64,000 nucleotides of DNA from an uncultured Pseudomonadales bacterium (GTDB taxonomy: Bacteria; Patescibacteriota; Microgenomatia; UBA1400; PJMF01): positions 149,096-213,095 of the forward strand of contig CAYVXV010000001.1 in NCBI GenBank assembly GCA_964455555.1, read 5' to 3'. Under the pieces are notes generated by a model. The model searched no databases. It was not told the DNA's origin and saw only the letters and a list, made by a program, of their open reading frames with translations. The position numbers were made by a program, and so were the translations under genes. Positions 5,301 through 21,719 of the stretch are shown piece by piece. Each line of letters begins with the position of its first letter. The stretch's first letter is position 1.

Positions 5301-5469
5301 CCTGTTGAGGAATAAACCCTCCCAATATATCTTCCGGCTTAACCAACAGCACCCTCAAGCCGCCTGTTTCCAGCAAACCAACTACTTCATCTAGCAGGGG
5401 TGAGGAATCGCCAAGCACAGCAACCACGGGTTGCTCAGCCACAAATTCAGTAGTAAACCGCTGTGACAT
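2353..5469 (-). CDS. large membrane-anchored DUF4012-domain protein (N-terminal Rossmann-like region, P/S/T-rich linker, one TM helix, coiled-coil, C-terminal DUF4012)
   Basis: C-terminal 'LVLQNNQELRPTGGFIQAVAILSFENGSL...NWYFRDSNWDPSFPVAAERMAWFMD' matches the DUF4012 signature; TM helix 'FWAGLVSIFAAASIVVLAGVFVL'. Confidence 0.7.
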   Translation of the reverse strand: MSQRFTTEFVAEQPVVAVLGDSSPLLDEVVGLLETGGLRVLLVKPEDILGGFIPQQAAAAHKMIWVVSGRVGNTGYEAVKNYLKSVSIPVTLVMPLISPISASTNTHEVVQQWYKRARIEQEVVLDSSHHLPRCNFVFLIDLTESPLPESSPLFFAAKLIEQGILVDPKTTWYLQDTNSALKAAKEYLIRTQSSGSVLIRADGSPSTGVLDFIKEKYGHYHQFNLKISPYPQVQSPPVPFVVSEKISTGISWEKLSVIAQNLPRPKVSEFSAASSPLEEELEKPDKNQGNQKKQLKSIFSAKLPTRESLSSAAPLLAIEPDAKVSSDVGSGVVPEKTTDNQVENSVANSPTPQKTQEAPASKTTAFSSKQPDFPPKKTQEASVKNHSKSLDVNEELSKIFTATRTEQKVEHIKKLVKTEKKFFKKSKRKTTMFWAGLVSIFAAASIVVLAGVFVLSQYGVKKALVGVIVNAQTTSVSEIEGDQHWETLRKRNSFLEFQTNAYTSLIDSAMFSQASLLVELSSQMREAVVSVDAARSSTEKLVLAVLGREDGDVSVLAQNLNTEAQRAYENLSLLQAGLDQVDSVLDLGEEESLVNQYSGEIKKLRDGLVSVQQLETVLDDLVGIGGRRTYALVLQNNQELRPTGGFIQAVAILSFENGSLSSHQIYSSYEIDRRFGGAISPPEEIRQFLGEQNWYFRDSNWDPSFPVAAERMAWFMDKSLGIKLDGVIGLNLYALEEIIAALGPVDLEEYNETLTNKNLQERMEFHSEVVLVETSESKDYSAVVLSKIFEKVKNVQEDKITSLLGAFSKSISTQQMAIAAFNADPQLTLTSLGWTGELIKPNCPALFSNGTCVVDSTAQVEANVGVNKANYYIKRSIDQMITINPDRINHQRTVLLENTAQTNSWPKGSYKTYIRFYIPQDSVFSEIKIDDQVVGQDQLTLAVENEKMIIGVLVDVPIQTSRQVRVSYTTPFEADSTFSYAFFNQKQAGTNETPSTITIINNSKHSPVLIAPQAEVVGNTIVFDKINEKHSFVGVRFE

Positions 5470-5565
5470 AGGCAGGCAAAAAAGTGTACTAGTACTTAAG
5501 CCATTGTAGAAAAATTTGAAGGTCTGGGGAAGTGGGGGAACAAGCCTGTCTGATAAAAATAGTTA

Positions 5566-5988
5566 TTAAAGTTCGTAAGCGTCGATGGCTTGGTTAACCA
5601 AGGCGTCTGCCTCAGCATTGTCGCTCCGGCCAATATGGATAACCGTCACATTGGGGAAGGGGAGTACGGTCATTAAGCCCCATGCCTCTACGGCCAACTG
5701 CTTAAGCCTGGGTTCTTTAATTTTCCAGCGCTTATTAACCTGTTCAACCACAAGTTTTGAGTCAAGTTTGCAGGAAACGGAAAAGCCGCTATATTCCCTA
5801 CCATTTTCATTCAGCCATTTCAGGGCTGCAATAAAAGCTTTGTACTCTGCCTCGTTGTTGGTAGCAACTCCAATAAACTCCGAGTGCTCATAAATAACTT
5901 GACCGGCCTCATCATAAATAATCACCCCAATACCCGCGTTGCCAGGATTGCCCCGGGCTCCACCGTCTGTAAATACATTGAGCTGCAT
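5566..5988 (-). CDS. rnhA: ribonuclease HI
   Basis: 'VFTDGGARGNPGNAGIGVII...ATNNEAEYKAFIAALKW' matches the RNase H catalytic D/E motifs. Confidence 0.9.
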   Translation of the reverse strand: MQLNVFTDGGARGNPGNAGIGVIIYDEAGQVIYEHSEFIGVATNNEAEYKAFIAALKWLNENGREYSGFSVSCKLDSKLVVEQVNKRWKIKEPRLKQLAVEAWGLMTVLPFPNVTVIHIGRSDNAEADALVNQAIDAYEL

Positions 5989-5990
5989 AA

Positions 5991-6449
5991 TTAATCTTCT
6001 TTTTTGCGCTGAATTGTCAGTTTTCTATCTCTACCATCACCGTTTGAAACACTTTCAAGGTCTGGAAACTCATCAGAAACAGTGGTGTGGACTACAAACC
6101 GCTCGTGAGAGGGGATGTGATAGGTGAAAGTATAAGGAGAGTTAGTTTCCTGAACCCGTTTAGCGGCGTTACGAGCCATTTCTTTAACTTTTTCTTCTCT
6201 TTGCTGGCGGTATTCGTTAATATTTAGATTGATCCGTTTGTCTGTTTCTCGCTGAAATACAATTCTCAATATTCGTTGGATTGAATCCAGGGTTTCACCG
6301 TGATAACCAATGAACAAGCCTGAGTCGGCTTCAGGAAGATTCATTTGGACGTTTATCGCTTCATCATCTTCGTCGACGATGACTTCAACAGCTGAAGTGG
6401 CGATGCCGCAGTGTTCTGCAAGTTGGGTTAAAAAGGTATCGATAGTCAT
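5991..6449 (-). CDS. khpB: Jag/KhpB RNA-binding protein (Jag_N, KH and R3H domains)
   Basis: Domain pattern 'FLTQLAEHCGI...IGYHGETLDSIQRILRIVFQRE'; classic position immediately after yidC. Confidence 0.75.
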   Translation of the reverse strand: MTIDTFLTQLAEHCGIATSAVEVIVDEDDEAINVQMNLPEADSGLFIGYHGETLDSIQRILRIVFQRETDKRINLNINEYRQQREEKVKEMARNAAKRVQETNSPYTFTYHIPSHERFVVHTTVSDEFPDLESVSNGDGRDRKLTIQRKKED

Positions 6450-6465
6450 AAAAACCTTAAAAGTA

Positions 6466-7260
6466 TTATTTATTCGCTTGTAAAAATCCTAGGGCTCGCT
6501 GCAGGTAAATAGTCAGCCCGCCCCAGCCGGAAACAAAGTATTGTTGAACAACACTAAACACAGTAGTTACTATCCAGTAGAGTGCTAGCCCGGCAGGGAA
6601 GGTATAGGCGAAAAATCCAGTGAACACCGGCATGATATAAATCATTTGCTGCTGCATGGACTGAGCCATTTCAGCAAAGTTTTCTTCTTTCTTATTTGCT
6701 TCCTGAACCGCTTTTTTCTTTGATTTATTCGGTACGATGTCTGGAGTTTCTGCTCCAGGAGCAATCATGACTGAAAGAACCAGCTGCGACAAAGCAGCAA
6801 TAACTGGAAGAACTAGGGTAGATCTACTTTCAACAAGATTGATTCCTAAAAATCTGGTGGTTATCATCTCGCCATTAACCATGATTGTGTCCAAAATTTC
6901 GCCATTATTTCCAAGCTGAGGCTCAAGGAAGCCGATTAAAACCCTATAGAGCAGAATTAGGACAACCAACTGCACTATTTGTGGTAGGCAGCCTGCCAGA
7001 GGATTTACGTTGTATTTTTTATAAAGGTCCATCTGCGCAGCCTGCAAGCCTTTTTTGTCGTCTTTAAACTGCTTTTTAAGTTTATTTAACTCTGGTTGAA
7101 TGGCTTTCATCTGCTTAGCAGCCTTGAGGGAAGGGATAGTAATCGGTAGCAATATCGTCCTGGTAAGAATTGTAAAGGCAATAATAGCTAAACCCAGGTT
7201 TCCTGTTAGGCCATTAAGAAATACTAAAATTTGCAATAAAAATTCTGAAAAAATGCTCAT
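6466..7260 (-). CDS. yidC: membrane protein insertase YidC/Oxa1 (short form)
   Basis: 'MDLYKKYNVNPLAGCLPQIVQLVVLILLYRVL' plus multiple TM helices. Confidence 0.9.
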   Translation of the reverse strand: MSIFSEFLLQILVFLNGLTGNLGLAIIAFTILTRTILLPITIPSLKAAKQMKAIQPELNKLKKQFKDDKKGLQAAQMDLYKKYNVNPLAGCLPQIVQLVVLILLYRVLIGFLEPQLGNNGEILDTIMVNGEMITTRFLGINLVESRSTLVLPVIAALSQLVLSVMIAPGAETPDIVPNKSKKKAVQEANKKEENFAEMAQSMQQQMIYIMPVFTGFFAYTFPAGLALYWIVTTVFSVVQQYFVSGWGGLTIYLQRALGFLQANK

Positions 7261-7346
7261 AACTCCTTCTGTATTAATTCGGTCGGAACGACTAATTGTA
7301 CCATTTTTTATTATTATTAATTATCTGGTTTAATCCCTGTTGTTCA

Positions 7347-7553
7347 CTACCAGCAGGTTAATACTCGTATAATCCCCTTAATGCCGCCCACCAACAACCC
7401 TTCTTTCTCGATTTTTTTAAATGCATATGTACCGCATGTTGGATTGTGCTTGCAGTGACTTATATAACCGAAGGCGCTGTATAGAATCTGGTACCTAAAT
7501 GCCCTAAACACTTGATAAGACTTAAACAAAAATCTAAATATTAATTTATTCAT
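7347..7553 (-). CDS. yidD: membrane protein insertion efficiency factor YidD
   Basis: 68 aa with the conserved 'CKHNPTCGTYAFKKIEKEG' motif (CxxxPTCS-type); overlaps rnpA by 8 nt. Confidence 0.8.
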   Translation of the reverse strand: MNKLIFRFLFKSYQVFRAFRYQILYSAFGYISHCKHNPTCGTYAFKKIEKEGLLVGGIKGIIRVLTCW

Positions 7554-7899
7554 GAGCCTTCAACCGGCTACCAATTTTTAAAAAGGCTTTCTCCATGGCC
7601 TCTGAGATTTCTTGGTGAGAGGAGGAGGAAACCGGATGTTTTGCCACCACAACAATATCCGCAGGCACTCCAGCCACACTTTGAATACTATCAGAAATAG
7701 ACCTACTTATCAATCTTTTTATTCTTATTCTCTCGGCGGCTTTCGCGGCAATTTTCTTAGAAACAACAACTGAGAAGGCTGGGCTACCGTCATCTCTCTT
7801 TACAATGAATAAATTAAATAAGGGATACCTTAAGATCTCCGCCTGCTTAAAAAAATCAGGCTTACTCCTAAGCTGAAGTCTAAATTGTTTTGGCAACAT
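7546..7899 (-). CDS. rnpA: ribonuclease P protein component
   Basis: 'LPKQFRLQLRSKPDFFKQAEILRYPLFNLFIVK...FSVVVSKKIAAKAAERIRIKRLIS' matches the RnpA signature. Confidence 0.85.
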   Translation of the reverse strand: MLPKQFRLQLRSKPDFFKQAEILRYPLFNLFIVKRDDGSPAFSVVVSKKIAAKAAERIRIKRLISRSISDSIQSVAGVPADIVVVAKHPVSSSSHQEISEAMEKAFLKIGSRLKAHE

Positions 7900-7914
7900 T
7901 AAAATTAGCGTACC

Positions 7915-8056
7915 ACTATTTGGCGTTGTCAGTTAAGCGCTTACGCCCTTTTGCCCTGCGGGATTTTAAAACACCTAAATGCTTTTTGGCTCTGTGCAAA
8001 AAACCGTGCTTGCGGGCGCGCTTCTTTTGTTTGGGGTTCCAGGTTCTCTTGGTCAT
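7915..8056 (-). CDS. rpmH: 50S ribosomal protein L34 (46 aa; below the ORF-track length cut-off)
   Basis: Hand translation of the minus strand gives MTKRTWNPKQKKRARKHGFLHRAKKHLGVLKSRRAKGRKRLTDNAK*; canonical position upstream of rnpA. Confidence 0.85.
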
Positions 8057-8092
8057 AAGTTTGACATTATATCACAAGGCTAAAACAGGTAA

Positions 8093-9202
8093 TTATTGAT
8101 TAACTTTAAAAGGCATAATTATGTATTGGTAGGATTGCATCTCTTCTGTTTCAAACGTTGCCGGCTTCAAACTGTCAGACATGCTGAAAGAAATTGTCTG
8201 GCCGGTTGCAGCCTGCAGAAAATCAAGAAGATAGCGGGCATTAAATGCAATATTGCTTTCTTCACCCTCAACAGCAGCCTGCTGAAGATCTCCTGAGAAA
8301 GTTCCCAGGGAAGGGGATGAAGATTTTAATACTGCCTTGCCGCCTTCAAAATGAAATCTGACAATATTCGAGGCGTCCCGAGAAAATATAATCGCTCTTT
8401 TGATGTTGTTTGCCAATTCTTCAGTGTCAAAAGTCACTTTGGTAGTAAAACTGTTGGGTACGATTTTCTCATAAGGAGGATAACTACCTTCAATCAACCG
8501 CACAAAAACTTGGGCGTCGTTCACTGCAAAAAAGACTTGTTTAAGCTCCTCAGAGACCGTAAAACGGACTTGGCCAGTGTCGGATTGACTGAGTATCCGG
8601 AATACCTCGCTAAGAGCCCTTGCCGGCACTAACATTTCTTTTTCAACGGATGCAGGCTCTTCGCTCAGCTGCATTAGCGCCAATCTAAATCCATCTGTAC
8701 TCACAACCTTAAGGCCGCCTTCTGAGAAAGAGAAGAGAACTGATGTTAATACCGGCCTAGCCTGATCGGTTGAGGCTCCAAATACTATATAGCGCTCAAT
8801 TTTCTCCAGGTATTCTTTGGAAAGTTCATACTGTTCACCTTGAACCTCTGGAAAAGGAGGGTACTCATTACTATCTAGGCATTGAAGGGAAGCCTTAGAA
8901 TTTTTTGATTTAATGGTTAGAGTTCCATTTTTATAAACTAAGTCTAGTGCTCCGGGAGGAAGTGAAGCGATGATTTCTCTAAATTGCTTTCCTGGAATTA
9001 CAATTTCTCCTTCATCAATTATTTCAGCTTGAACACTTGATCTCACTCCAAAGTACAGGTCTGTGGCAGCTATAGTGCACTCATTGCCTTTGGCTGAGAG
9101 CAGTACTGAGGATAGGATTGGCAAGGTAGGTTTTGAAGGAATCGCTTTTTGGATGTAATTCAGTGACTGATGAAGGTTTTCTTGTAGGACTTTGAGTTTC
9201 AT
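8093..9202 (-). CDS. dnaN: DNA polymerase III beta sliding clamp
   Basis: 369 aa, 'MKLKVLQENLHQSLNYIQKAIPSKPTLPILSSVLL' N-terminus, three-domain clamp length, directly downstream of dnaA. Confidence 0.9.
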   Translation of the reverse strand: MKLKVLQENLHQSLNYIQKAIPSKPTLPILSSVLLSAKGNECTIAATDLYFGVRSSVQAEIIDEGEIVIPGKQFREIIASLPPGALDLVYKNGTLTIKSKNSKASLQCLDSNEYPPFPEVQGEQYELSKEYLEKIERYIVFGASTDQARPVLTSVLFSFSEGGLKVVSTDGFRLALMQLSEEPASVEKEMLVPARALSEVFRILSQSDTGQVRFTVSEELKQVFFAVNDAQVFVRLIEGSYPPYEKIVPNSFTTKVTFDTEELANNIKRAIIFSRDASNIVRFHFEGGKAVLKSSSPSLGTFSGDLQQAAVEGEESNIAFNARYLLDFLQAATGQTISFSMSDSLKPATFETEEMQSYQYIIMPFKVNQ

Positions 9203-9483
9203 AAACTGTTTCTATTATTAAGAAAAATAGTATTAATTAATAGTTGCATTAGTAGTAGAGCAAAAAATAATCGTGGATTTCCTTAGTATTTCCGCCTGGT
9301 GTTTTAGTGTGGATCGAATGTTGATATTCCCCGCTATCTTTTGTTAATAACATTTGGGGATTGGTGTGGGGCAGGTGTTTGCAACCTTTTTCGTTTCCCC
9401 ATCCGGCAAGAATATTCAACATCTATTAACACCACAATCCTCATTTTTTCAACAGCTTTATCCACAACTGTGGATAAAAACCA
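9203..9483. promoter_or_regulatory. candidate oriC / DnaA-box region in the dnaA-dnaN intergenic spacer
   Basis: Perfect TTATCCACA at 9458-9466 and its perfect inverse TGTGGATAA at 9469-9477; imperfect boxes TGTGGATCG at 9308-9316 and CGTGGATTT at ~9272; AT-rich stretch at 9205-9265. Confidence 0.6.
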
Positions 9484-11052
9484 CTAACTTCCTGCAGCCA
9501 GAGTCATCCTTAGCGCCGAAATATCCCGTTGAACCAATTCATTACTCTTAACCTCACCATTAATTTTATTCACTGCATGAAGTACTGTGGTGTGATCTCG
9601 GTTTGAGAACCACTTGCCAATTTCTGTAAGAGGTAAGTCGAGGTCGGTTTTTAATAAATACATGGCAATATGGCGGGCTTGAACCAGTGATTTAACCCTT
9701 CTTTTGCCCTTAATTGCTGTTTGTTTGAGCCGGTAATGATTGGCCACGGTCTTGATAACCTCGGCCGGAGCGGCTTTAATTTGAGGCCTCTTATCTTGAA
9801 TTTCAACTAAAAGAATGTCATCAATTAGTTCGTTATTAACTTCGCGGTGCTTTAATTCAACTTCTGAACGGATGCTGGTGATAATCCCCTCAATTTTTCT
9901 GGCGCTTTCTACCTGTGAAGCAATGGTTTTAGCCAACTCAATTGGAATATTTAAGTTGGCAGCTTTTGATTTAACCAGCAAAATTGCGGTTCGCAGTTCA
10001 AAAGATGGTTGTTGAATATCTATCATGAGTCCGGCTTCAAACCTCGAGCGCAGCCTGTCTTCCAGTAAGTTTATTTCGTGAGGGGGCCGGTCTGAAGTTA
10101 CGACTATTTGGCTTTGCTGCTTTGTTAAGGAATTGAAAGTGTGAAAAAATTCCTCTTGCACAGCATTTTTTCCAGCAATAAACTGAACATCGTCAATCAG
10201 GAGTACGTCGGCATTGCGGTATTTTGCCTTAAATTGGCTAGCTTTCTTAGTTTGAATGGCATGGACTATCTCATTGGTGAATTCTTCGCCAGTGCAGTAA
10301 ATAATTTTTGCATCAGGGTTGTTTCGTAGGATGTTGTTGCCGATAGCGTGCATAAGGTGGGTTTTGCCGACTCCAACTCCCCCATACAGGAAAAGCGGGT
10401 TGTAAGACTGTCCTGGCCGGTTGGAAACTGCGGTGGCAGCTGCGTGAGCCATTTCATTGGTTGTTGATACAGCAAAGGTTGTGAAGGTGTAGTCAGTGCG
10501 AAGACCCACTTTTCTAGCTATAGCCTCAACCCTATCAACAGCAGCAGACCGCATGTTGTTTTCTGAGAACAAATCTTCTACCCGGGGAGAAGCTGTACCG
10601 CCGTGCCCGGAGTAGGACTGCGGCTGAAGGGTTTGTTGGGGCGAAGACTGAGGCGTGGGTTGAGAAAGCTGTCCTTCATCACTCTTGTTTTGTTCGAAAT
10701 TTGGCGTAAAAGTCTGGCCTATGGTTTTAAAACCTTCGCTGCGCTGTTCTTGCCCGCTTTGAGCTAGGGGGTCACCGACTTTGTAAACAATCTCTACATC
10801 CCGCCCTGTCACCTTATCCACTGCTGACTTTATAAACATATGAAGGTTTTTTTTGAGGTTTGTTGAATGAAAGGCTGTAGGGCTGGTTATGGTTGCCGTG
10901 GCCTTGTCAGCATCCTCAAAAACCAACTCTGTAATTGGATTGGAAATAATCCAGGTGCTGTATACAGCGGGAGACAGCTGTAATTGGAGGTGAGAGCAGG
11001 CTTGCTGCCAGATTTTTTTAGTTTCGGCTGTCGGTAGTGCTGTGGTTTGCAT
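9484..11052 (-). CDS. dnaA: chromosomal replication initiator DnaA
   Basis: Walker A 'GGVGVGKTHLMHAIGN', 'LLIDDVQFIAGK', C-terminal DNA-binding 'HTTVLHAVNKI'. Confidence 0.95.
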   Translation of the reverse strand: MQTTALPTAETKKIWQQACSHLQLQLSPAVYSTWIISNPITELVFEDADKATATITSPTAFHSTNLKKNLHMFIKSAVDKVTGRDVEIVYKVGDPLAQSGQEQRSEGFKTIGQTFTPNFEQNKSDEGQLSQPTPQSSPQQTLQPQSYSGHGGTASPRVEDLFSENNMRSAAVDRVEAIARKVGLRTDYTFTTFAVSTTNEMAHAAATAVSNRPGQSYNPLFLYGGVGVGKTHLMHAIGNNILRNNPDAKIIYCTGEEFTNEIVHAIQTKKASQFKAKYRNADVLLIDDVQFIAGKNAVQEEFFHTFNSLTKQQSQIVVTSDRPPHEINLLEDRLRSRFEAGLMIDIQQPSFELRTAILLVKSKAANLNIPIELAKTIASQVESARKIEGIITSIRSEVELKHREVNNELIDDILLVEIQDKRPQIKAAPAEVIKTVANHYRLKQTAIKGKRRVKSLVQARHIAMYLLKTDLDLPLTEIGKWFSNRDHTTVLHAVNKINGEVKSNELVQRDISALRMTLAAGS

Positions 11053-11210: not shown

Positions 11211-13337
11211 TCAAGATTCAGGCGGTGTGTAATCCTGGATTGATTGTTGGCCGTGATATCTTACTCCCTCTCTTCCAAGCGGTTCTTGAGCCGCAGGCGC
11301 AGGGCTACCATTGGATTGGGGATTAGGATTTTCTGACTGGGCCGATGCTTGTTCAGGAGGGTTTTGCCCTGGTTCGCCGTCGCCTTCTGTCTGGTAGTAG
11401 GCTGGAGCCGGCCTGTTTTGTTCGGTCTCCAGTTTTTTTCTGGCTTCAATCTGCCGCCGCTTAAGTATTTCCTCTGGGTTGCTGGTGATAACCTGATGTT
11501 CTTCGTCGCTAGCCACCACTCTGAGGGCTACATGGTTTTGTCCGGCAAAGAAGATCCCTTCCCCAATATCGGAAGAAATTAGAAGTTGGCGCTCTCCCTG
11601 TGAGAGATAAAAGGTCTCTGACAAAACGGGGATTGAAGCGGTTGACTGCTTCATTAAAAATTGTATTGAAGCATTGGTGACAATAGCTTTGCCATAATCG
11701 TTGTGCAAAAAGTCCTCAACATCCTGAGTGATTGTGGTAATGCCTAAATAATATTTTCTTGAACGCTTAACCATTGAATGCAGGAACGAAGCTGAATCCT
11801 GATGCTTCATGAAATACCAGGCCTCATCAACCACGAGGATGCGTTTCTTGAGGTCTTTTTTAATTCTGGTCCAGATAAACTCTAGGATTATATACATAGC
11901 AATCGGTCGGAGTTCTTCCTCCATCTCCTTAACCGAAAAAACCGTAAGTTGGTTGCGGATATCCAGGTTGGAGGGTTGGTCAAAAATACCCCGGAATGAG
12001 CCGGTGATAAACTTCTCCAGCCTTGAAGCAATGTCGTCAGAGTCCTTGTTTTCCATGCCAATTAAAACCTTGTAAACATCTTCCATCAAGGGAGGTTCAT
12101 TGGTTTGGGTGGCTGGATCCGGAGTAATTCCCTTGGCTTTGTAGGCAGCTACCAAGGCGCGGTCAAGGATGGCGTCCTGCTGAGGCGTCATTTCCCCGAG
12201 CATAACTTTTAGCAAGCCATGAAGGGAAATGATTTTTTGGCCCAGCTCATTTTCACCTTCTTCATAGAGATTGGACAGGTCGAAAGGATTGATTTTGGTT
12301 TCGGAACCGAAAGTAAAGTTGATATATTCGCCTCCGGCCGCCTTGCAAAGCTCCTCATACTCTTGCTCTGGGTCAAGGACAATTACTTCTGTGTCAAACA
12401 TGAGCTGCCTGAGGATTTCCAGTTTTACAGTGTAGGATTTTCCTGCACCAGATTTGGCAAAGATAACCATATTGGCGTTTTCCATTTTGAAGCGGTCAAA
12501 AATAACCAGCGAGTCATTGTGTTCGTTGATGCCGTACACAATGCCGGTTTCCATGGTCAGCTCCGAAGAAGTAAAGGGAAAAGTTGTAGCCAGAGACGTG
12601 GTGTCCATGTTTCTGGTCACCATCAGTTTGTCGGTGCCCATAGGTAGGGTGGTTTTAAAACCTTCGTCCATCTGGAGGGTAGCTTTTTTGGAGACAATTA
12701 ATAGTGAACCCAAGGAAGACTGTATGGCCTTAGTCACCTTATCCAGCTGTTCCTTGCTGTCTGCTTGTATAGTTATATAAAGCCCGAATTGATAGAAGCG
12801 CTCTGATCCTTTAGCCAGTTCTTCCCGGATAAAGCGGGCGTCTTCAAGTTTAACTTCTGTATTGATGTTGCTAATCTTTCCCGACCTAAGGTCTGATTGG
12901 ATTTCCGCCTCCATCTCTGTGATTTTTCTTTTAAGATTGTCGAGAATTTCGGCTGAATCAACCGGAAAAATGTACATGGATACATTTATCTGATGGGGAA
13001 AGTTAATCAGCGGTGAAAGCCAGTTGGCCGGGACAGCCCTTGGGTATCCGGCCACAAAAAGCGTTCTTGTGTAGGTGGAATTGATTTTTTGAAAGGTGAA
13101 ATCAACCTCAATTGCTTCTGGGGCAATAATATCTTGAATAGTAACCAGGCCTCGGGAAAACGCTTTTAGCTTTTCTTGGTTGCGCTGATCTAAGTTCTGC
13201 TGAACATTATTTTCAGAAGAACCGCTTTCTTTTGGTTTATTGAGGAATGGTAGTCCTGCAAATAGATTGGGCATCTTGTTTTTTTTGACTAACCGCTGTC
13301 TGCCGCTATCATCATTACTCGGAACATTAACAATCAA
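11211..13337 (-). CDS. VirB4/TrbE/CagE-family type IV secretion ATPase (core; lacks the extreme N-terminal VirB4 motif)
   Basis: Walker A 'FAKSGAGKSYTVK'; VirB4 hallmark Walker B 'ILVVDEAWYFM'; N-terminal CagE_TrbE-like 'YTRTLFVAGYPRAVPANWLSPLI'; P/Q/N-rich C-terminal tail. Annotated start is TTG; an ATG (MPNLF) lies at 13274. Confidence 0.85.
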   Translation of the reverse strand: MIVNVPSNDDSGRQRLVKKNKMPNLFAGLPFLNKPKESGSSENNVQQNLDQRNQEKLKAFSRGLVTIQDIIAPEAIEVDFTFQKINSTYTRTLFVAGYPRAVPANWLSPLINFPHQINVSMYIFPVDSAEILDNLKRKITEMEAEIQSDLRSGKISNINTEVKLEDARFIREELAKGSERFYQFGLYITIQADSKEQLDKVTKAIQSSLGSLLIVSKKATLQMDEGFKTTLPMGTDKLMVTRNMDTTSLATTFPFTSSELTMETGIVYGINEHNDSLVIFDRFKMENANMVIFAKSGAGKSYTVKLEILRQLMFDTEVIVLDPEQEYEELCKAAGGEYINFTFGSETKINPFDLSNLYEEGENELGQKIISLHGLLKVMLGEMTPQQDAILDRALVAAYKAKGITPDPATQTNEPPLMEDVYKVLIGMENKDSDDIASRLEKFITGSFRGIFDQPSNLDIRNQLTVFSVKEMEEELRPIAMYIILEFIWTRIKKDLKKRILVVDEAWYFMKHQDSASFLHSMVKRSRKYYLGITTITQDVEDFLHNDYGKAIVTNASIQFLMKQSTASIPVLSETFYLSQGERQLLISSDIGEGIFFAGQNHVALRVVASDEEHQVITSNPEEILKRRQIEARKKLETEQNRPAPAYYQTEGDGEPGQNPPEQASAQSENPNPQSNGSPAPAAQEPLGREGVRYHGQQSIQDYTPPES

Positions 13338-13472
13338 GCGGCCAACGAGCCTAGCGTTGTCGTTGCAACCATTGTACTGAAAATACTCCGGTCATCAAAG
13401 ACCCAGCTATTCTAGCAGATGAGCACAGGTCTGCGATTTATTAGTTCTAGTTACAGGATTTAGCCGGTCCTC

Positions 13473-14966
13473 TTATTGTTTGTCTGGCTCGGTTGGAGCA
13501 GCGTTGGGCGAAACATTTTGGTCAGGCGTCGTAGATGTTGCGGCCGCAGGGTTAGAGCCAAGTTCTCCCAGTGTCTTATTAATCTCATCTTGAGCTGCTG
13601 TAAGTTCGTCGTCTGCAGGAGGTGGACTGCCGGTTCCTTCTCCGGCTGGTTCTGGGCTTGCGGACGGAGCAGGCGGCACTTCCTGTTTTTGAACCTGTTG
13701 TTCTTGATTTGGCGTCAAGTTAACCTCGTTCGGCGCACCGGTTTGTGCAGCGGGCTGCCCGGAAGTTGGTTCTGTGGTTGCCTCAACCATTGGTGTGGGA
13801 GGGGCAGTGGGCATTGGAAGAGGAGCTTCTTCAGGAGCTGTGTCTGAAGAAGTTTCTCCCTCTGGCTTTTGGATGGTTTGAGACTCTACCGGTACCGGAG
13901 GGACAGCATCACCCTCACTAGGCATAGCTGGAGTTGGGGGAGGTGTAATTGGGTTTGGAGTGGAATCGCCCTGACCCCCATTTTCAACAACAACTTGTTC
14001 GAGTGTCATTGGAGTTGGCGCAGCACTGGCCTGCGGCTCGGTTGGAGTAACCTGGGCACCAGTGTCAGGTGCGGTGGTGTCAGCAATGGGGTTGGGTAGT
14101 TCGGTCGGAGCAGCTTGTTGTTCAGCTGGAGCCGGCTGCTGTGCTTGAGCCGGAGCAGGTTCGACTTGTGGCTGAGTAGGCGGCTGTGTTGGTTGCTCGA
14201 CTGGAGCCAATTGTTCTTCGGTTCCGGGCTGAGTGGCCTGCGTCTCATCCGGGTTGTTGGGTGTATTTTGCGGCATGGCAAATCCTTCAAAACTCGCTTT
14301 TACTAGTGGTGTTGTATAGCTGTTGCTGTCTGCAATTCCTTGCCCTTCCGCAGCTTCGGGATTGTAGCTTAAATAGAATAATTGAATAATTTCTTGAGTA
14401 GTGAGTTGATTTGAATAGAGGCCTATTCTGGCAAATTGAGAAATAATGTGATCCCGTTTGGGTTCCAGAATATTTTGAGCTTTTTCCAGCAAAACGCTTC
14501 TTTCTATTTGTGTTACATCAAATGTTTGCTGTCCCGGAAGCACGCTTTGAGCGGTTAATAAGCCTAGTTCGAGAGGGCCGGCGGGGATAACAACATAAAA
14601 CTTTTTATCAAGCACGTTGCGCTCGTGAATTAAGTTGCTTACAAATTCGCGGTAGCGGCCAATCCGGTGGCGTTTTTCTTGAGTAGAGGCCTGAGCCTCC
14701 TGCTCCTGAAGCCTTCTTAGATAACTGGTTACATCTTTTGTTTGAGAGCGGACCAACACCTGAATTGGATAATTGAGGGAATTCAACAAGCCGGCATAGG
14801 CGTAGATAATGCTGTCCTGTTCTTCCTCGGCTAGAAGGCCGAAGTTCATCGCGTCGACGGTTAGGATGAGTGATGTAGTGCCATCCTTCATAATCACTAA
14901 ATCATTAGTGATATCGTGAATATCAAGGTATTGTTGAGTGGTGGAAGAAATTGTTTGTTCTGCCAT
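13473..14966 (-). CDS. VirB4 N-terminal-domain-like protein with ~270-aa P/T/Q/A-rich disordered tail (putative detached N-terminus of VirB4)
   Basis: 'DLVIMKDGTTSLILTVDAMNFGLLAEEEQDSIIYAYAGLLNSLNYPIQVLVRSQ' mirrors the extreme N-terminal motif of VirB4/TraC ATPases (compare A. tumefaciens VirB4 'IVLLEDGSIMSIARIDGVAFELEEIE...IYAHLVRH', recalled from memory); no ATPase motifs; lies directly upstream of the ATPase ORF. Confidence 0.5.
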   Translation of the reverse strand: MAEQTISSTTQQYLDIHDITNDLVIMKDGTTSLILTVDAMNFGLLAEEEQDSIIYAYAGLLNSLNYPIQVLVRSQTKDVTSYLRRLQEQEAQASTQEKRHRIGRYREFVSNLIHERNVLDKKFYVVIPAGPLELGLLTAQSVLPGQQTFDVTQIERSVLLEKAQNILEPKRDHIISQFARIGLYSNQLTTQEIIQLFYLSYNPEAAEGQGIADSNSYTTPLVKASFEGFAMPQNTPNNPDETQATQPGTEEQLAPVEQPTQPPTQPQVEPAPAQAQQPAPAEQQAAPTELPNPIADTTAPDTGAQVTPTEPQASAAPTPMTLEQVVVENGGQGDSTPNPITPPPTPAMPSEGDAVPPVPVESQTIQKPEGETSSDTAPEEAPLPMPTAPPTPMVEATTEPTSGQPAAQTGAPNEVNLTPNQEQQVQKQEVPPAPSASPEPAGEGTGSPPPADDELTAAQDEINKTLGELGSNPAAATSTTPDQNVSPNAAPTEPDKQ

Positions 14967-15028: not shown

Positions 15029-16240
15029 TTAGGCACTCCTTATTTCGAGTGGGGCAACAGGCTCTCCTTTCAAAACTATGGTTTGTGGAGTAAAGCTGAA
15101 ACCATCCTTTTCGACATTTACCAAATATTCACCATTTTTTAGAGGGGTGGTAATGAAAAATTGGCCTAATGCATTTGTTTTAACAGCTCGAACAATTTGG
15201 CCTCCGAGTTGTATTTCTACAATAGCGTTGGTAATTAATTCGTTGTTTTGGGTTAATACCATTCCGACGAGCTTGTTGGCTTCTTCCGGAGGATCCGGGA
15301 AGGGCAGGTCTAAATTAAACGCTGCCTCTGTTGCATTTTGAGTTTCCTGTACTGGGACTGATGTGCTAGTCTCAACATAGGTGTGGCCGGAAGCATTTGT
15401 TTGAGTTTGTTCTGATTCAGCTGCGGCTGATTCCTCTATTATATTTGCTACCTGCTCAACTTCGGGAGGAGTGTTTTCGGGCACATCGACTAAGGTGGCA
15501 GCCTCTTCTGCGGTAAGATCAGCAGTTTTCTTAACCTCAAACTCTTCTTGTTGATTTATCGAAGTAGCCAGGTTTGGAGTCGAAATTTTTTTAATTGGCG
15601 CGTCATCAGCGATGCTGGTGGGAGCGTAAATAGTTACTTCTTCTCTGGTTTTAATAACTGGAGAAGTTTGGCTCCGCATGCTTCTAACTCTGACCTGAAG
15701 ATTTGGTTTGGCAGCAACTTTTTTCTGCGCGGCTGTGGGTGTGATTGGCTCCGGAGCAGCATCAAAGAAAGAAGAGATTTGCTGTATCCTACTAGCTTCC
15801 CAGTCAGTCAGGTCGCTCTGATATTCGGAAGGTGTATTTACCGAAGTGATGTATTCTTTAATCCTAGCTTTTTTTACCGGACTTAAGTCTAGTTCCGGTT
15901 CATATTGTGTCTGGTTAGCTGTGGGTTCGTATAAGAAAGGTTCCGGAATATTGGATGTTCTTTTCCAAAAAAACTTAGTTGGTTTGTAGAGTGTTCTGAA
16001 AAAAGTGATAATCCAGTGATCAAGTGGCCTTTCCTCAATCGGCAAGAAAGCCGCTCCGGCTCCCAGGCCTACGGAGAGCAGTATGAACGCCCACTTAATT
16101 GGTGTAGGCAGGTTGGTGCTGTAAAAAGCGACACCAACAACCACGCCAATGAATATTTCAGCAAACTGCTTGAGGGTCATGCTGCCAATAATATGAAAAC
16201 GGTAGTTGGTGATGTCTTGTGGGATTGGGTGTTCTCGCAT
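15029..16240 (-). CDS. VirB3/PrgI-like two-TM membrane protein fused to a C-terminal CarboxypepD_reg-like beta-sandwich domain
   Basis: N-terminal 'RFHIIGSMTLKQFAEIFIGVVVGVAFY...WAFILLSVGLGAGAAFLPIE' (two TM helices, GxxTxxQ-like motif) in the position typical for VirB3 just before VirB4; C-terminal 'AIVEIQLGGQIVRAVKTNALGQFFITTPLKNGEYLVNVEKDGF' is prealbumin-like; SD 'aggaaag' upstream. Confidence 0.45.
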   Translation of the reverse strand: MREHPIPQDITNYRFHIIGSMTLKQFAEIFIGVVVGVAFYSTNLPTPIKWAFILLSVGLGAGAAFLPIEERPLDHWIITFFRTLYKPTKFFWKRTSNIPEPFLYEPTANQTQYEPELDLSPVKKARIKEYITSVNTPSEYQSDLTDWEASRIQQISSFFDAAPEPITPTAAQKKVAAKPNLQVRVRSMRSQTSPVIKTREEVTIYAPTSIADDAPIKKISTPNLATSINQQEEFEVKKTADLTAEEAATLVDVPENTPPEVEQVANIIEESAAAESEQTQTNASGHTYVETSTSVPVQETQNATEAAFNLDLPFPDPPEEANKLVGMVLTQNNELITNAIVEIQLGGQIVRAVKTNALGQFFITTPLKNGEYLVNVEKDGFSFTPQTIVLKGEPVAPLEIRSA

Positions 16241-16328: not shown

Positions 16329-17369
16329 TTAAAAGCCTGAAGTAGTTTCAATTGCCGGAGTAATGAATGTTAAGAAAACATTATCGAATTCTGAGCCGGC
16401 GCTTTCTCCTTCCGCCTCAATCCGGAAATATGGGTAGTAAGCCTGGGTTCTAGGAGAGTAGCGGTATTCAAGCTCTAGATTATTGACAGTGATGGTTTTA
16501 AGGGAGGTAATCTCAAAGTTGGCTGCAAGGTTTCCCGCTTCAATTATTTCAGCACTGCCGCCGGCGATTTTTTCTCTGATCTTTGACAGCGGCAGAATGT
16601 TTTTGTCTGCTATTTTTGTAGCCATGGGCGGCGGCGGGTAAAACTCTGCTTTTTTAATTTCGTAGTTAAAGCCAACCTGGATTGTTGCAAGTGATTTTCT
16701 GGCAGCTGAGTAGTAGGCGGGATAATTATCAATTAAAAAAGTAAACGGGATTACAATCGTTTCAGCAGTGCCGGCCGACGCAGTCCTGGATTCCTGAGCC
16801 AGGAAGGTGATCTCTCTTCTTAGAGGCGAGAGTTCGGGATAACCGGGAATTTGTTTAATGAAGGCGCTGGCGGCATTAATTGCAGGCTCAATTACAATTT
16901 CCTGATTATCATCTGATATTTCGGGTATCGAAACCACATACATTAGTTTGTTCTCGTGCTCAAGGAAGCTGAGTGAGCGCTTGGTCTCATAATCGGTCCA
17001 CGTACTCACCTGATATGGAGATGTGTCCTGAGGCAGGCTTAAGCTTTCTGCAACTTGTTGGGCAAAATTTCTAGTAGATGAGTAGGAAGGAGTGCCGGTG
17101 TAAACACCGAGGGTTTTGGGAAAGTCAACTTCGTCTTGAGAAATATTCATAACTACCCGTACGTTTTCGGGCGGCTTAGTAATGCCCGAGCTGATTCCTT
17201 CAATTGTCACAGGCGTGCTTTCAGGAGGTTCTGGTGTAAGGATAAGTAATAGGGCTGAACCCACCAGCACAAACCCAAGAAGGATAATGAAGTAGCGCAA
17301 TGGGTTGGCTTTTATCTTTTCCGGAATACTCCGGATTGTTTGCAGTATTTGTTCTTTATTAATTGTCAT
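16329..17369 (-). CDS. N-terminally membrane-anchored extracytoplasmic protein (possible VirB8/TcpC-like T4SS component)
   Basis: Single N-terminal TM 'YFIILLGFVLVGSALLLIL' and ~300-aa ectodomain; only positional and topological support. Confidence 0.3.
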   Translation of the reverse strand: MTINKEQILQTIRSIPEKIKANPLRYFIILLGFVLVGSALLLILTPEPPESTPVTIEGISSGITKPPENVRVVMNISQDEVDFPKTLGVYTGTPSYSSTRNFAQQVAESLSLPQDTSPYQVSTWTDYETKRSLSFLEHENKLMYVVSIPEISDDNQEIVIEPAINAASAFIKQIPGYPELSPLRREITFLAQESRTASAGTAETIVIPFTFLIDNYPAYYSAARKSLATIQVGFNYEIKKAEFYPPPPMATKIADKNILPLSKIREKIAGGSAEIIEAGNLAANFEITSLKTITVNNLELEYRYSPRTQAYYPYFRIEAEGESAGSEFDNVFLTFITPAIETTSGF

Positions 17370-17403: not shown

Positions 17404-20400
17404 TTAATTGCTTGTACCAACTGTTTGAATGAATGCGTTTTTTAAACCTATGTTAACCGGCATGGGCCTGCCTCCGGGCATTGAGAGCGAGTTTGAACAG
17501 AAAGAAGCAGAGCCTCCGGAGTCAAGGAAAATAAATTGGTCGGCACCGCATTGCTGCATAATATCTGCCAAGTCAGAATAGTTGCCCGTTCTGATTGAGG
17601 CAAAAATAATTGCTTCTCCAGTGAAATCGGTGCACTCGCCATTTGCGTTGCCATAACCCAAGGCAACCCTGTTTCTCTCTCCACCTCCGTCCGGATGATC
17701 ACTGAGTACACCGGTAACAGCTTTTTGATAGCCTCCCACTACAAAAGGCATGTCGGTGCGGTTGTACCAGGCAGAAGGGACGGGGTCAATCCGGAAGTTT
17801 CCACTGTTGTCTACAGTGAACATTCTCATAGTTTGTTCCATGTAAGCAGGATCCCGACCGTTGGCATTGGCAAAATACACCGGGGGGTTGGCTCCGCCTA
17901 TACCAATCGGCTGAGTGGGGGTGTTGTAGTAATTGGCATTAATGGCAACATCTAGCTCTGGGTTGTTTCTAAACCAGTCGCAGGTGTATTTTGGAGAGCT
18001 GGCTTCAGCACTATTACTGACAACAAAGTTGTCAGCGGTTTTTGGCCCAATGGCTACATACCCGGATACGCCGGCATCATCGTCATCCTGAGCAGCCGCA
18101 CAATCACGCGAATTAACGCTCATGCCATAAATTGCGCTTTCATCTGCGCGGATGGCGCTTTTTTCAGCTGCCGTAAGCGGCAGGATGTCCAAGACATCTA
18201 TGCCGACTGTTTCAAAGTGAAGGTGGTTTCCAGAAGAGTTTCCTGTGCTGTCAACCCTGCCCAGAAGTTCTCCAGCTTGAACTTGAAGATCGCGGGTAAT
18301 ATTGGACATACTGATTCCTGGTGCAAAGTCGAGTAAGTGGGCAAAAATCATGATATAGCTGCCGGTATCAACAATGACGTGGGTGCCGTACTTATATTGG
18401 CCGTCACTGCTCCTCATTCCTGTGCCATCTGGATAGAACGAGGCAGTTCCGGCATATGGTGTAAATACTGGTGCATTGGCACCACCATCTGAAGCAGAGT
18501 TGTCCCAGGTAGTAATATCAATGGCAACACCGTCTCCAGGGTAAGAGCCATAGCCGCCCCGTATTACAGCATGAGGGCCACCGCAACCCGCGCAAAGCGT
18601 GGGGTCATAATTTTGGTAAGCCCTAATCACCCCAGTGGTTGGCCAGCAGCCTTCAAAATTTGAAAGTGTCCGGTCAAAAGTGCTGCTCTTATATGAAGCC
18701 GGCAGCGGGCCTAAGAAAGCAGCAAAAATAATAAGCAGGGTTATCAGCGAAATTAAAATTGAACCGGCTATGGTACCTGCAGCTGCTGCGGTACCAACAG
18801 GAAGTGTGGACAGATAACTGGCGGCTGTTCCCGCTACATTGTAACTGCCGCCTGCGGTTGCTGTGCCTGTGGCGCCGGTGGTAGCGCCGGCTGTTTGGGC
18901 GCTTGGCGGCAGGGAACTGGATCCTAAGGCAGGATATGAAGAAGTGCCGGTTGAGCCGCCAAATGACGGCAAGCTGAAGCCCCCGCCTCCTATTGCCGCA
19001 CCGGCGTTGGCGCCGACTGCGGCTCCAAGGCCAGCTCCGACAACTGCTCCTACAGGTCCTCCAATCAAGAAGCCAGCAATGCCACCGCCAATGCCTCCAA
19101 CCAGCCCGCCAATAAGGCCGCTTATTCCGGCTGTAAACATTTTTATCAGGCCTTGAACTACAAAAGCTCCGCCCACAGCCAAAGCTCCAAGAATCCACTT
19201 GCGCTTTTTCTTGTCTGCCAGAAGAGCTGCTGCTTTACCCCACGGGCCTGCCGCTGCCAGGGCTTTGGTTGCCAACTTATCACCGCCGGCTTTTTTCAGG
19301 GCACTTAGCGCTTTTCCTCTAGCATCAACCTTTTTGCTGAAGCGGTCAGTGAAGCGGCTTCTGGCCGAGGCGAATCTGCCTCTTATACCCCCCGGCGGCG
19401 GTCTTTGTGCGCCTGGAATGCCGGCTGGAACACCTGCCACATCATCGGCTGAATAAGTTCTATCACCACCCGCCCCGACGGGCGCACCTCCGTGGGATTC
19501 TGAAACAGCGGCCTCATTAGCTTGGATTAGCTCCATTAAGCTTGCTTGGTGGAGAGCCGCTAGGCTTTCATACTCCAATTGCTCGAGAATGCGCTCTCTT
19601 TCCTCTAAGGATGTTTGGGCAATAAATGACTCAACATAGAAGCGGCGCAGATTTTCTATATAGATTGCTTCTTGATGAGCTGTTTCCAGTTGAAAAAGCC
19701 TTTCCTGGTCGATTTCTGCCTGAAGCTGAATGGCTTCCTGTGCACGCATTTGCAGTTCTGCAAAATTGAGCAGATGGATGTTGGTCGGCACCATGTTGCG
19801 GTCGGTAATTTTATCCAAATCGTGGCCCAGGTATTCATAAATGAGTGTTTTTTCATCAGGTGAAAGGGCATTCCATGCAATCAAGTGGCGCTTATGCTGG
19901 TCTTTCACACTATTGGTGACTGCCCTTGCCACGCGTTCTGCACCATGCTCCTGAACAGATGAGCTGGCGCTGCTCAGTGAGGGGAGGAGCCGGCGTTCAA
20001 AAATTTGGTGATTGCCGGCTGCCAGCTCATCAGCTTCTTTGCCGCTCAGGGGCGCCAAACCTGCTGACAGGCTGGTTTTTTCCGCTTCTAAAGCCAGTTC
20101 AACAGCAAAAAGTTGAGCGTATTTAATGAGGAGTTTTCTCAAGCGCCTGATGGCATCTTCGGTTAAGCGGTATTCCTCCGGTATACCCAGCATTAAGAGC
20201 AGGTGCTCATCGCTCATGTGTTGTAGAAGCCAGGCTGCAGTGTGAGGGTGGGTGGCAAGGCTTTGAAGCGAAGCTTGGCTTGAAACATCAATGTTCACAA
20301 ACTCAAACTCAGCCCCTTGGTTAATTAATAGGGACTTTAGGGCAACCTGGATTCGGCCTTCTACTTGAGTGAATTCCCTGGTGCCCAGGCCGACAATGGT

Positions 20401-21540
20401 GGGGCTGTCAGATTTAAGGACATCTTTAAGCTCTTGGCGGAAATTGTAGCCGGTGGTAAAGCCTGAAAGTTCTTCAAGGGCAATGGTATGGTTTTTAAGC
20501 GAATCAACCAATTGAGTAGCGTGCTGAGCAAAAGCCTCGCGCTCTTCTTCTGGCAGACTGAGAGTGTAGTCTTTGTAAAAGTTCTCGAGCGCCGCCACAA
20601 ACTGGGGTGAGCGGGAAATTTTTAGGTAAAGCTCATCGAGGATTTCCAACCGGCGGCGTGGATTAGCAAAAAGCAGGCCAATTTCCGCCTTATCCTTGCT
20701 GAGCATGATTTCCATGACTTCATTGAGCAGCAGATTTTTAAGCTCGGGGTTTGCCTCCAGATAAGCATAACTAATGTCCTTGGAGACAAAAAGCTCGTGC
20801 AAAGCCCGGTTGTAAATCCATGTTGCTTCATACTGCATTTTTTCCAGATCATCTCTGGTGGCAGTAGGTTCGACCTCTTCTTCCTGAGGGGGTAGTTGGT
20901 CAGCCCCTCCGGTCTCCGGTTCCTCTGGAGTTGTTGGAGCGGCTGAAACACCAGTGGGCGCTGGTGGTTCGTTAATTTGTTCATCTAGCTCATCAACCTC
21001 ATCTTCGAGTAGGTCCTGATTGATTTCCTCGGCAGCCTCTGAAAACTCCACTATTGTTGCCCGGGCTACAGCTTGCAGTAGTTTAAGAATTTTATCTCTA
21101 TGGCTATGAGCAATAGTTTCTGATACTAATTTTTCATCATCCCGAGAACCCGCGATTTCTATCAGTAATCGCTTCTGCAGGTCGGAAGACCTGAGAAAAC
21201 TATAAGCATTCAGGCTGGCCTGAGTTTCAGCCGTACCCCTGTGTAACAAAATAGCGGCAGCATCAGAGAGCAGCAGAATAGCGTCGGTATAAAATAGGTA
21301 ATTTTTGCGGTCCTTAGGATCAATTAGGGCTTTATCAGCATCAAATAGTGAAGAGGTGTGAACCTTAAAACTGGGTAGTTGGACCGGTTGCTGATCGAGT
21401 AGTTCGCCGTTAGGTTTAAAGGCGCGGCTGAGGTCAATAACTAAATCACGGACCTTTTCAAGTTTTTCGCTTGGGTCAATAAACTTCACTTGCTGAAGCT
21501 CAGTCAAAGGGACTGATTGATTTTGCTCGTCAGGCGCCAT
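17404..21540 (-). CDS. giant membrane protein: cytoplasmic alpha-helical/coiled-coil N-terminal half, glycine-zipper membrane segment, extracellular M23 (LytM) peptidase domain plus phosphodiester-glycosidase (NAGPA/DUF2233)-like domain
   Basis: M23 signature 'GTHVIVDTGSY...GNSSGNHLHFETVGIDV' (HxxxD and HLHFE); C-terminal 'FIFLDSGGSASF' NAGPA-like motif; Gly-rich 'GGLVGGIGGGIAGFLIGGPVGAVVGAGLGAAVGANAG'. The ORF track starts at TTG 21618; ATG (MAPDEQ) at 21540 is preceded by a 'tataat'. Confidence 0.7.
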   Translation of the reverse strand: MAPDEQNQSVPLTELQQVKFIDPSEKLEKVRDLVIDLSRAFKPNGELLDQQPVQLPSFKVHTSSLFDADKALIDPKDRKNYLFYTDAILLLSDAAAILLHRGTAETQASLNAYSFLRSSDLQKRLLIEIAGSRDDEKLVSETIAHSHRDKILKLLQAVARATIVEFSEAAEEINQDLLEDEVDELDEQINEPPAPTGVSAAPTTPEEPETGGADQLPPQEEEVEPTATRDDLEKMQYEATWIYNRALHELFVSKDISYAYLEANPELKNLLLNEVMEIMLSKDKAEIGLLFANPRRRLEILDELYLKISRSPQFVAALENFYKDYTLSLPEEEREAFAQHATQLVDSLKNHTIALEELSGFTTGYNFRQELKDVLKSDSPTIVGLGTREFTQVEGRIQVALKSLLINQGAEFEFVNIDVSSQASLQSLATHPHTAAWLLQHMSDEHLLLMLGIPEEYRLTEDAIRRLRKLLIKYAQLFAVELALEAEKTSLSAGLAPLSGKEADELAAGNHQIFERRLLPSLSSASSSVQEHGAERVARAVTNSVKDQHKRHLIAWNALSPDEKTLIYEYLGHDLDKITDRNMVPTNIHLLNFAELQMRAQEAIQLQAEIDQERLFQLETAHQEAIYIENLRRFYVESFIAQTSLEERERILEQLEYESLAALHQASLMELIQANEAAVSESHGGAPVGAGGDRTYSADDVAGVPAGIPGAQRPPPGGIRGRFASARSRFTDRFSKKVDARGKALSALKKAGGDKLATKALAAAGPWGKAAALLADKKKRKWILGALAVGGAFVVQGLIKMFTAGISGLIGGLVGGIGGGIAGFLIGGPVGAVVGAGLGAAVGANAGAAIGGGGFSLPSFGGSTGTSSYPALGSSSLPPSAQTAGATTGATGTATAGGSYNVAGTAASYLSTLPVGTAAAAGTIAGSILISLITLLIIFAAFLGPLPASYKSSTFDRTLSNFEGCWPTTGVIRAYQNYDPTLCAGCGGPHAVIRGGYGSYPGDGVAIDITTWDNSASDGGANAPVFTPYAGTASFYPDGTGMRSSDGQYKYGTHVIVDTGSYIMIFAHLLDFAPGISMSNITRDLQVQAGELLGRVDSTGNSSGNHLHFETVGIDVLDILPLTAAEKSAIRADESAIYGMSVNSRDCAAAQDDDDAGVSGYVAIGPKTADNFVVSNSAEASSPKYTCDWFRNNPELDVAINANYYNTPTQPIGIGGANPPVYFANANGRDPAYMEQTMRMFTVDNSGNFRIDPVPSAWYNRTDMPFVVGGYQKAVTGVLSDHPDGGGERNRVALGYGNANGECTDFTGEAIIFASIRTGNYSDLADIMQQCGADQFIFLDSGGSASFCSNSLSMPGGRPMPVNIGLKNAFIQTVGTSN

Positions 21541-21719
21541 GCTTTGATTATAGCGCAGGGTGTGTAGAGAATGGGAGGGTGAAGCGGGTATGTAAACCGC
21601 TGCTTTTCCTTTTTTCAACGTGTATGAAATAATAGAGCTATATTTACCTGCGGAAGGTTTTAAGTGTTAGTAGTTGATGCCAGATGTAATCATCAGGCGT
21701 TTTTGATATAATTCAGACA

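Follow-up and report, generated by a model that had tools for sequence, protein, structure and literature searches.

A probable two-piece VirB4 ATPase in the origin-proximal type IV secretion cluster of a Microgenomates-type Patescibacterium

We analysed two adjacent open reading frames (ORFs) on the minus strand of the window, the whole stretch of 64,000 nucleotides (nt) presented here, which belongs to a Microgenomates-type Patescibacterium. ORF A (13473..14966, minus strand, 497 amino acids, aa) and ORF B (11211..13274, minus strand) probably specify VirB4, the signature ATPase of type IV secretion systems (T4SS), in two pieces and form part of a conserved chromosomal T4SS. ORF A, a stand-alone TraC-like/TrsD-like protein with a disordered tail, would contribute the first N-terminal subdomain of about 200 residues, and ORF B, a VirB4 ATPase without that subdomain, the second half of the N-terminal domain and the RecA-like domain. 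The ORF list and the Pfam and NCBIfam matches give the transcription order PrgI/VirB3-like gene, ORF A, ORF B, dnaA and dnaN. We document that both products are homologous to VirB4 and complementary, that the split is conserved and that natural fusions exist. This two-gene layout, which has been published, is conserved and standard in the T4SS of Patescibacteria and in the pGO1-class Gram-positive systems, and is not a notable new variant.

Comparison with the NCBIfam profiles aligned the first part of ORF A with the N-terminal region of VirB4 families. Residues 8-127 match positions 102-233 of 894 in VirB4_plasma (E 1.6e-6), residues 9-125 match positions 14-140 of 201 in TrsD/TraD (NF041427; E 1.4e-4, 21.7 bits) and residues 11-116 match positions 2-103 of 752 in conju_CD1110 (NF045971, hereafter CD1110; E 0.02). 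The TrsD/TraD score lies below the curated cut-off of that family (21.7 vs 200 bits), and by sequence ORF A is only a remote homologue of NF041427. Its context is of the TrsD type, as it stands directly upstream of a short TrsE-like VirB4 and is homologous to the part that is absent from this partner. With the ORF A domain as query, a word-indexed search returned more than 1,130 homologues, and each of the 120 listed is a stand-alone protein of 224-408 aa with 65-83% identity and is annotated with PF26593, the Pfam family "TraC-like". An exhaustive HMMER search with the same domain produced 1,781 clusters at 50% identity, and in nearly all of the best 150 (158-787 aa in length) the match begins at, or close to, the N-terminal end of the protein itself. 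Microgenomates-type Patescibacteria (Pacebacteria, Woesebacteria and others) supply the best homologues; in the nearest genome locus (L003, Patescibacteria bacterium UBA1370) the corresponding domain has 89% identity to that of ORF A. A local Pfam scan of ORF A and of the isolated domain gave no match, and the same scan also missed PF26593 in proteins already annotated with it.

The folded TraC-like domain (ORF A aa 1-215; 14322..14966, minus strand) gave a good AlphaFold2 model, with a predicted local distance difference test (pLDDT) value of 85. Searching this model against the PDB with Foldseek revealed that the top 14 matches are all TrwK/VirB4 chains of R388, with probabilities of 0.97-1.0 and E values of 4e-3 to 5e-2, and that every other match has a probability below 0.25. 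PDB sequence searches with the domain and with a 42-sequence profile returned no meaningful match, VirB4 being found by fold comparison only.

ORF B aligns with the remainder of the same profiles. It matches positions 176-733 of 752 in CD1110 (E 1.9e-114, 383.6 bits, above the curated cut-off of 325) and positions 280-893 in VirB4_plasma, and contains the Pfam domains CagE_TrbE_VirB, P-loop_TraG, AAA_10 and DUF87. The RecA-like C-terminal ATPase domain (aa 259-619; 11481..12563, minus strand) matches 4ag5_A, the C-terminal domain of Thermoanaerobacter VirB4 (phmmer E 5.3e-49), and carries both Walker motifs: the Walker A motif GAGKS (aa 297-301; 12435-12449, minus strand) and the sequence VVDEAW (aa 502-507; 11817-11834, minus strand), which the preliminary description of this DNA had named as Walker B. 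N-terminal of the match to this solved domain lies the second half of the VirB4 N-terminal domain (aa 56-258; 12564..13172, minus strand), recognized by PF03135 (CagE_TrbE_VirB, aa 156-232) and by the SCO6880 family model (aa 86-234). A complete N-terminal domain, with profile positions 1-175, is missing from this polypeptide, and positions 2-103 are those matched by ORF A. Judged from these alignments, the two products are complementary and non-overlapping on VirB4 profiles; together they span CD1110 positions 2-733, and some 70 positions in between (104-175) have no match in either protein of the window. A collinear anchor is provided by position 237 of TIGR00929, which corresponds to residue 228 of the naturally fused protein P0217 and to residue 85 of ORF B. 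The TraC-like family showed no significant similarity to the N-terminal region kept in ORF B (hhalign probability 3.7% over 45 columns), so ORF A is not a detectable duplicate of anything in ORF B, and a paralogous relationship between ORF A and the VirB4 part retained by ORF B was rejected at the sequence level.

The genes are separated by a spacer of 198 nt (13275..13472, minus strand), as indicated by three-frame translation and by the alignment with L003 and L004. ORF B probably begins with the ATG at 13274 (MPNLFAG), which is conserved in the closest relatives (MPNLL in L003 and L004) and from which ORF B has 687 aa; the mechanical TTG start of the ORF finder at 13337 gives a gap of 135 bp. 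Stop codons occur in all three frames of the spacer, which rules out read-through or frameshifting across it. Some relatives have both genes in one frame with a single stop between them, and very short intergenic gaps account for these cases. The spacer of the window also contains a sigma-70-like sequence (TTGATG-16-TACAAT, 13398-13371, minus strand) within a block conserved in L003 (~7380-7440); this suggests that virB4 may have its own promoter in this lineage, with the number of promoter-like sites in the region not above chance.

A scripted survey of 80 species-representative genome loci revealed that in 73 of them virB4 is a separate gene, located downstream and on the same strand, and in none of these 73 is it fused. 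The conserved part of virB4 starts within about 700 nt of the ORF A stop in 70 of the 73, usually at 60-150 nt, and in L062 and L064 the virB4 ORF opens beside the ORF A stop and holds a large insert. No virB4 match was found in the other seven loci, most of which end soon after ORF A. The split was seen in Pacebacteria, Woesebacteria, Gottesmanbacteria, Beckwithbacteria, Curtissbacteria and others; throughout the Microgenomates-type Patescibacteria it is the usual condition. Since every one of the 73 related loci with both genes shows the split, a frameshift or sequencing error is excluded. The idea of a pseudogene, a frameshift or an assembly artefact of a single virB4 has the unusual look of the two ORFs in its favour and nothing more; the conservation data refute it, and it is also opposed by the spacer with stops in all frames, by more than 1,000 stand-alone proteins with 65-89% identity to the ORF A domain and by the presence of the exact ORF A and ORF B proteins in independent public assemblies (where ORF A, in NCBI/Logan, has no name), and we give it practically no chance. 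In genome annotation, a TrsD-like/virB4 pair is not to be flagged as a broken gene.

Much of what the preliminary description had read from the letters is borne out by these results. It had recognized a VirB4-like N-terminus at the start of ORF 13473-14966, which agrees with the N-terminal positions matched in VirB4_plasma, CD1110 and TrsD/TraD; a P/T/Q/A-rich run of low complexity up to the end of that ORF, which amounts to 282 aa from about residue 216; and the remainder of VirB4, without the upstream motif, on the next ORF. It had considered a frameshift or sequencing error unlikely, and such an error is excluded here. Its interpretation as a split VirB4 holds, in essence, at the structural level. 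The profile alignment that it proposed gives complementary parts, ORF B lacks a complete VirB4 N-terminal domain and has no detectable copy of the upstream one, and the orthologues that it wanted compared are split in the 73 related loci and fused in several Microgenomates clades. Its distance of 135 bp is replaced by 198 nt when the conserved ATG is taken as the start.

Fused forms were found in Amesbacteria-like Microgenomates. In P0217 (787 aa) the TraC-like domain is joined directly to the VirB4 body, and a single continuous match (388.5 bits) spans CD1110 positions 3-735. At least two different samples gave contigs with P0217; PrgI lies upstream of it, and the longer contig also has dnaN and dnaA nearby. 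These fused proteins (P0217, P0272 and others) resemble the window in that both parts are orthologous (46-58% identity), with PrgI upstream and dnaN/dnaA nearby, and differ from it in being a single chain of 783-897 aa with no tail at the junction. Among the best 120 matches to P0217, 43 are fused (783-897 aa), and the rest are split VirB4 proteins (573-667 aa) or carry an intein. A neighbour-joining tree of the VirB4 part, which is rough and has no support values, showed the fused proteins as seven separate clades among the split ones, and Fitch parsimony on this tree indicated at least seven changes and a split root. Fused and split forms are thus seen, on the sequence data, to interleave among close relatives. 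The split is genuine in the locus L084, a relative placed beside a fused clade, as its TraC-like gene of 198 aa overlaps virB4 by 4 nt.

In some Microgenomates, virB4 contains an insert of about 2.5 kb, which the annotation gives as an intein with a LAGLIDADG homing endonuclease (PF14890, PF14528). Inserts of this type are found in L062 (~6752-10426) and L064 (~5301-8909), and in P0307, P0308, P0311, P0317 and others, which are 1158-1215 aa long. In L062 and L064 the insert would lie at or just after the Walker A motif, because similarity to ORF B resumes at aa 301.

The same division of VirB4 is present in Firmicute plasmids. A tblastn search of plasmids with the ORF A domain gave 92 records, mostly from Bacillus and Clostridium and some annotated as TrsD, with 22-31% identity. 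In the Bacillus cereus plasmid pH308197_73, TrsD (345 aa) precedes TrsE (627 aa) with 15 nt between them, TrsD aa 142-304 corresponding to CD1110 positions 17-171 and TrsE aa 21-602 to positions 177-732. The pGO1/pSK41-class MPF_FATA TrsD/TrsE (TraD/TraE) pair is therefore like the window in having TrsD immediately upstream of a short VirB4 and the same CD1110 breakpoint (~172-177). The pair differs in that the similarity of TrsD to ORF A is remote and in that it belongs to a plasmid conjugation system, whereas the window holds a chromosomal, origin-proximal cluster; the Bacillus TrsD has, unlike ORF A, an extra N-terminal region of about 130 aa with two hydrophobic segments, and no Pro/Thr tail. 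We suspected that this region (aa 1-130; L083 2320-2710) might be a VirB3/PrgI-like anchor, but it has no Pfam match and we do not claim it. The 'TraD' of the pELF plasmid paper is a VirD4-type protein and is irrelevant here. A different division was noticed with the SCO6880 family model of Actinobacteria (477 positions), in which ORF B aa 86-234 (~12636-13082) correspond to positions 326-476 and P0217 aa 157-376 to positions 244-476; by these alignments, the SCO6880 group may have the whole VirB4 N-terminal domain as a separate protein, with another split point.

In Patescibacteria, passages of Quiñonero-Coronel et al. 2025 (PMC12102498) name TrsD homologues, with their remote similarity to the N-terminus of VirB4, as the T4SS component of greatest abundance, and report 2,272 of them, 1,664 next to VirB4; they also say that the TrsD homologue of Southlakia epibionticum is listed as essential, state that the function of TrsD is unassigned and describe the location of the T4SS near dnaA. 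According to PMC10633639 and PMC12102498, the Patescibacteria T4SS is essential for epibiotic growth. The window agrees with the Patescibacteria-clade T4SS as these passages of PMC12102498 present it: its FATA-like VirB4 has adjacent TrsD and PrgI/VirB3 homologues, and the cluster lies by dnaA/dnaN. These passages treat TrsD as a separate component and do not mention that the partner VirB4 lacks the corresponding region, nor natural fusions or variable tails, and the main text of Guglielmini 2014 (PMC4027160) does not mention TrsD. The explicit complementarity, the breakpoint in common with Firmicute TrsD/TrsE and the recurrent fusion and fission in Microgenomates may go beyond the literature that we found.

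The tail of ORF A (aa 216-497; 13476..14321, minus strand) is a lineage-variable disordered extension. It consists of 282 aa rich in Pro, Ala, Thr, Gln and Glu (P 20%, A 13%, T 13%, Q 10%, E 10%), and the pLDDT of the model is below 50 from about aa 216. In the 73 related loci the length after the domain ranges from 2 to 340 aa with a median of 101, the composition being Pro/Thr/Ala/Gln-rich; many split relatives have just 2-12 aa, and the fused proteins have no tail at the junction. Since the length is so variable and the fused junctions have no tail, the Pro/Thr-rich tail is dispensable for the split. The tails of ORF A orthologues in L003-L082 are otherwise unalignable but have short motifs in common, and motif counts in 48 long tails were compared with shuffled tails. 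An hN.TL.ELG-like motif was present in 15 of the 48 (0.2 expected), a C-terminal PP[LV][PA]E[IL] in 22 (0.01 expected) and F.EEI.PLQ, which belongs to another subclade, in seven (0 expected); the definition of the motifs followed inspection of the data, and the sequences are interrelated, which makes this a lead and not a result. The window ORF A retains INKTLGELG (aa 462-470; 13557..13583, minus strand), a motif of the first type, but has lost the terminal PPLPEI motif kept in L003. Speculatively, the conserved short motifs may tether a partner. ORF B also ends in a low-complexity extension (aa 620-708; 11214..11480, minus strand), about 90 aa rich in Pro, Gln, Glu and Asn, low in complexity from about aa 640 and located past the end of every VirB4 profile match.

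The preliminary description had explained the two ORFs by a local gene fission with acquisition of a disordered linker, and had regarded the result as a notable new variant. A recent, lineage-specific fission of this kind would fit the unusually long tails (189-282 aa) and spacers of the window and its closest relatives, in a group in which fusion and fission clearly occur. It is contradicted by the spread of the split over the Microgenomates groups named above, by the same breakpoint in Firmicute plasmids, by the split root in the parsimony analysis and by the tails of 2-12 aa in many split relatives, and we regard it as very improbable. The linker as part of the fission falls with the range of tail lengths (2-340 aa), and the novelty with the earlier publication of a TrsD homologue by VirB4 (PMC12102498) and with the existing Pfam family PF26593.

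To compare the two-piece protein with a complete VirB4 structure, we modelled a chimera in which ORF A 1-214 is joined to ORF B 70-635 after the natural-fusion pattern, aligned with 31 natural fusions. The model matched full-length TrwK chains with E 1e-26 and with query and target TM-scores (TMq, TMt) of 0.66 and 0.65 over 790-860 columns. ORF A and ORF B together thus resemble a full-length VirB4 (CD1110 family) and TrwK of R388 in profile coverage, in the superposition of the chimera on TrwK and in the presence of Walker A and VVDEAW; unlike these proteins, the window uses two polypeptides, both with low-complexity extensions. In R388 the VirB4 N-terminal domain comprises residues 15-400 and makes the whole dimer interface; VirB3 wraps this domain in the central subunit, and VirB8 tails are bound in the outer subunit (PMC9259494). 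We infer that the ORF A domain would dock in trans on ORF B, rebuilding a complete VirB4 N-terminal domain, and that the docked domain would help to link the ATPase with the PrgI/VirB3-like anchor, whose gene lies just upstream. As the missing first VirB4 subdomain, TrsD would have a concrete and testable role, that of rebuilding the domain that anchors and dimerises the ATPase, and the identification would explain why TrsD is the most abundant component detected. The natural fused and split variants in close relatives are ready material for testing this role.

Several points weigh against the two-piece reading. The matches of ORF A to full-length VirB4 profiles are weak (E 0.02 to 1.6e-6), and its TrsD score is far under the cut-off. 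Collinearity is the basis for identifying its domain with the first half of the VirB4 N-terminal domain, the output of the fold searches not specifying the TrwK residues that are matched. The chimera model is of moderate confidence (pLDDT 68.6, predicted template modelling score, pTM, 0.52), and a single chain forces the two parts into proximity; the physical association of ORF A with ORF B is something that we infer. In L060 virB4 is 5.6 kb away and in L058 it was not found within 6 kb downstream, and given these loci the TraC-like domain may work without tight coupling to virB4. Finally, passages of PMC12102498 report that Gracilibacteria TrsD homologues are not associated with virB4.

This last observation would also suit a protein independent of VirB4. 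ORF A could be an accessory protein, an ancient paralogue of a VirB4 subdomain now acting as adaptor, chaperone or regulator with its own partners, next to a self-sufficient short VirB4 in ORF B. The long tail with conserved short motifs suggests extra partners, and the order of secondary structure, which is the same in both N-terminal halves of the chimera, hints at an old duplication. Against this, the first ~175 positions of every full-length VirB4 profile are absent from ORF B, which has no detectable copy of the domain; the fusions put the domain exactly at VirB4's own N-terminus with the profile matched end to end, and fused and split forms interleave among close relatives. We consider an accessory protein unlikely, and the two-piece VirB4 remains the reading that we favour. 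An extension of it, more speculative still and to which we attach a small chance, is that the TraC-like subunit would be a separately dosed docking module between the PrgI/VirB3 anchor and the ATPase, that the tail motifs (hN.TL.ELG-like, PPLPEI, F.EEI.PLQ) would recruit partners, perhaps substrates, with no coupling protein nearby, and that repeated fusion and fission would switch between constitutive and regulated assembly.

The two N-terminal halves of the chimera, residues 16-201 (from ORF A) and 221-374 (ORF B aa 76-229), share the order three strands, helix, strand, two helices, strand, helix, strand, helix. In the model this hints that the VirB4 N-terminal domain may be an ancient tandem duplication, with the split falling between the repeats; at the sequence level, the halves show no similarity in hhalign.

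The genes around the pair indicate that the secretion cluster adjoins the replication origin. Directly upstream of ORF A is the gene for the PrgI/VirB3-like membrane protein (15029..16240, minus strand; Pfam PrgI E 6.9e-7, 30.2 bits vs a cut-off of 27), and immediately downstream of ORF B are dnaA (9484-11052) and dnaN (8093-9202), which together occupy 8093..11052 on the minus strand and were identified from the window translations, not from profiles. In L001 and L084, dnaN and dnaA with their Pfam domains are in the same position, and the gene order is PrgI, TraC-like, VirB4 in L084 and PrgI, fused VirB4 in L001. The PrgI/VirB3-like protein of the window is unusually long (403 aa) and has a C-terminal CarboxypepD_reg-like beta-sandwich domain (E 3.9e-7, just below the Pfam cut-off), a combination also found in L084.

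The Patescibacteria-clade T4SS (PMC12102498) is characterized by a cluster free of relaxase and coupling protein and by arrays of VirB2-like pilins close by. No relaxase or coupling protein was found among the neighbouring ORFs scanned here, nor were genes of the VirB6, VirB8 or pilin type identified in the window; the scan covered only some of the neighbours, and not the small ORFs or the rest of the window. Four sizeable ORFs round the cluster (16329-17369, 21720-24575, 24645-26405 and 26509-27468) have no Pfam match, and the first, the only one of the four scanned against NCBIfam, has no match there either. Two very large ORFs on the minus strand, at 17404-21618 (1404 aa) and 27526-30879 (1117 aa), each have a single cell-wall hydrolase domain, Peptidase_M23 in the former and the lysozyme-like SLT_3 in the latter, and these giant proteins near the cluster possibly have a VirB1-like function. 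A giant Peptidase_M23 protein is also encoded after virB4 in L001.

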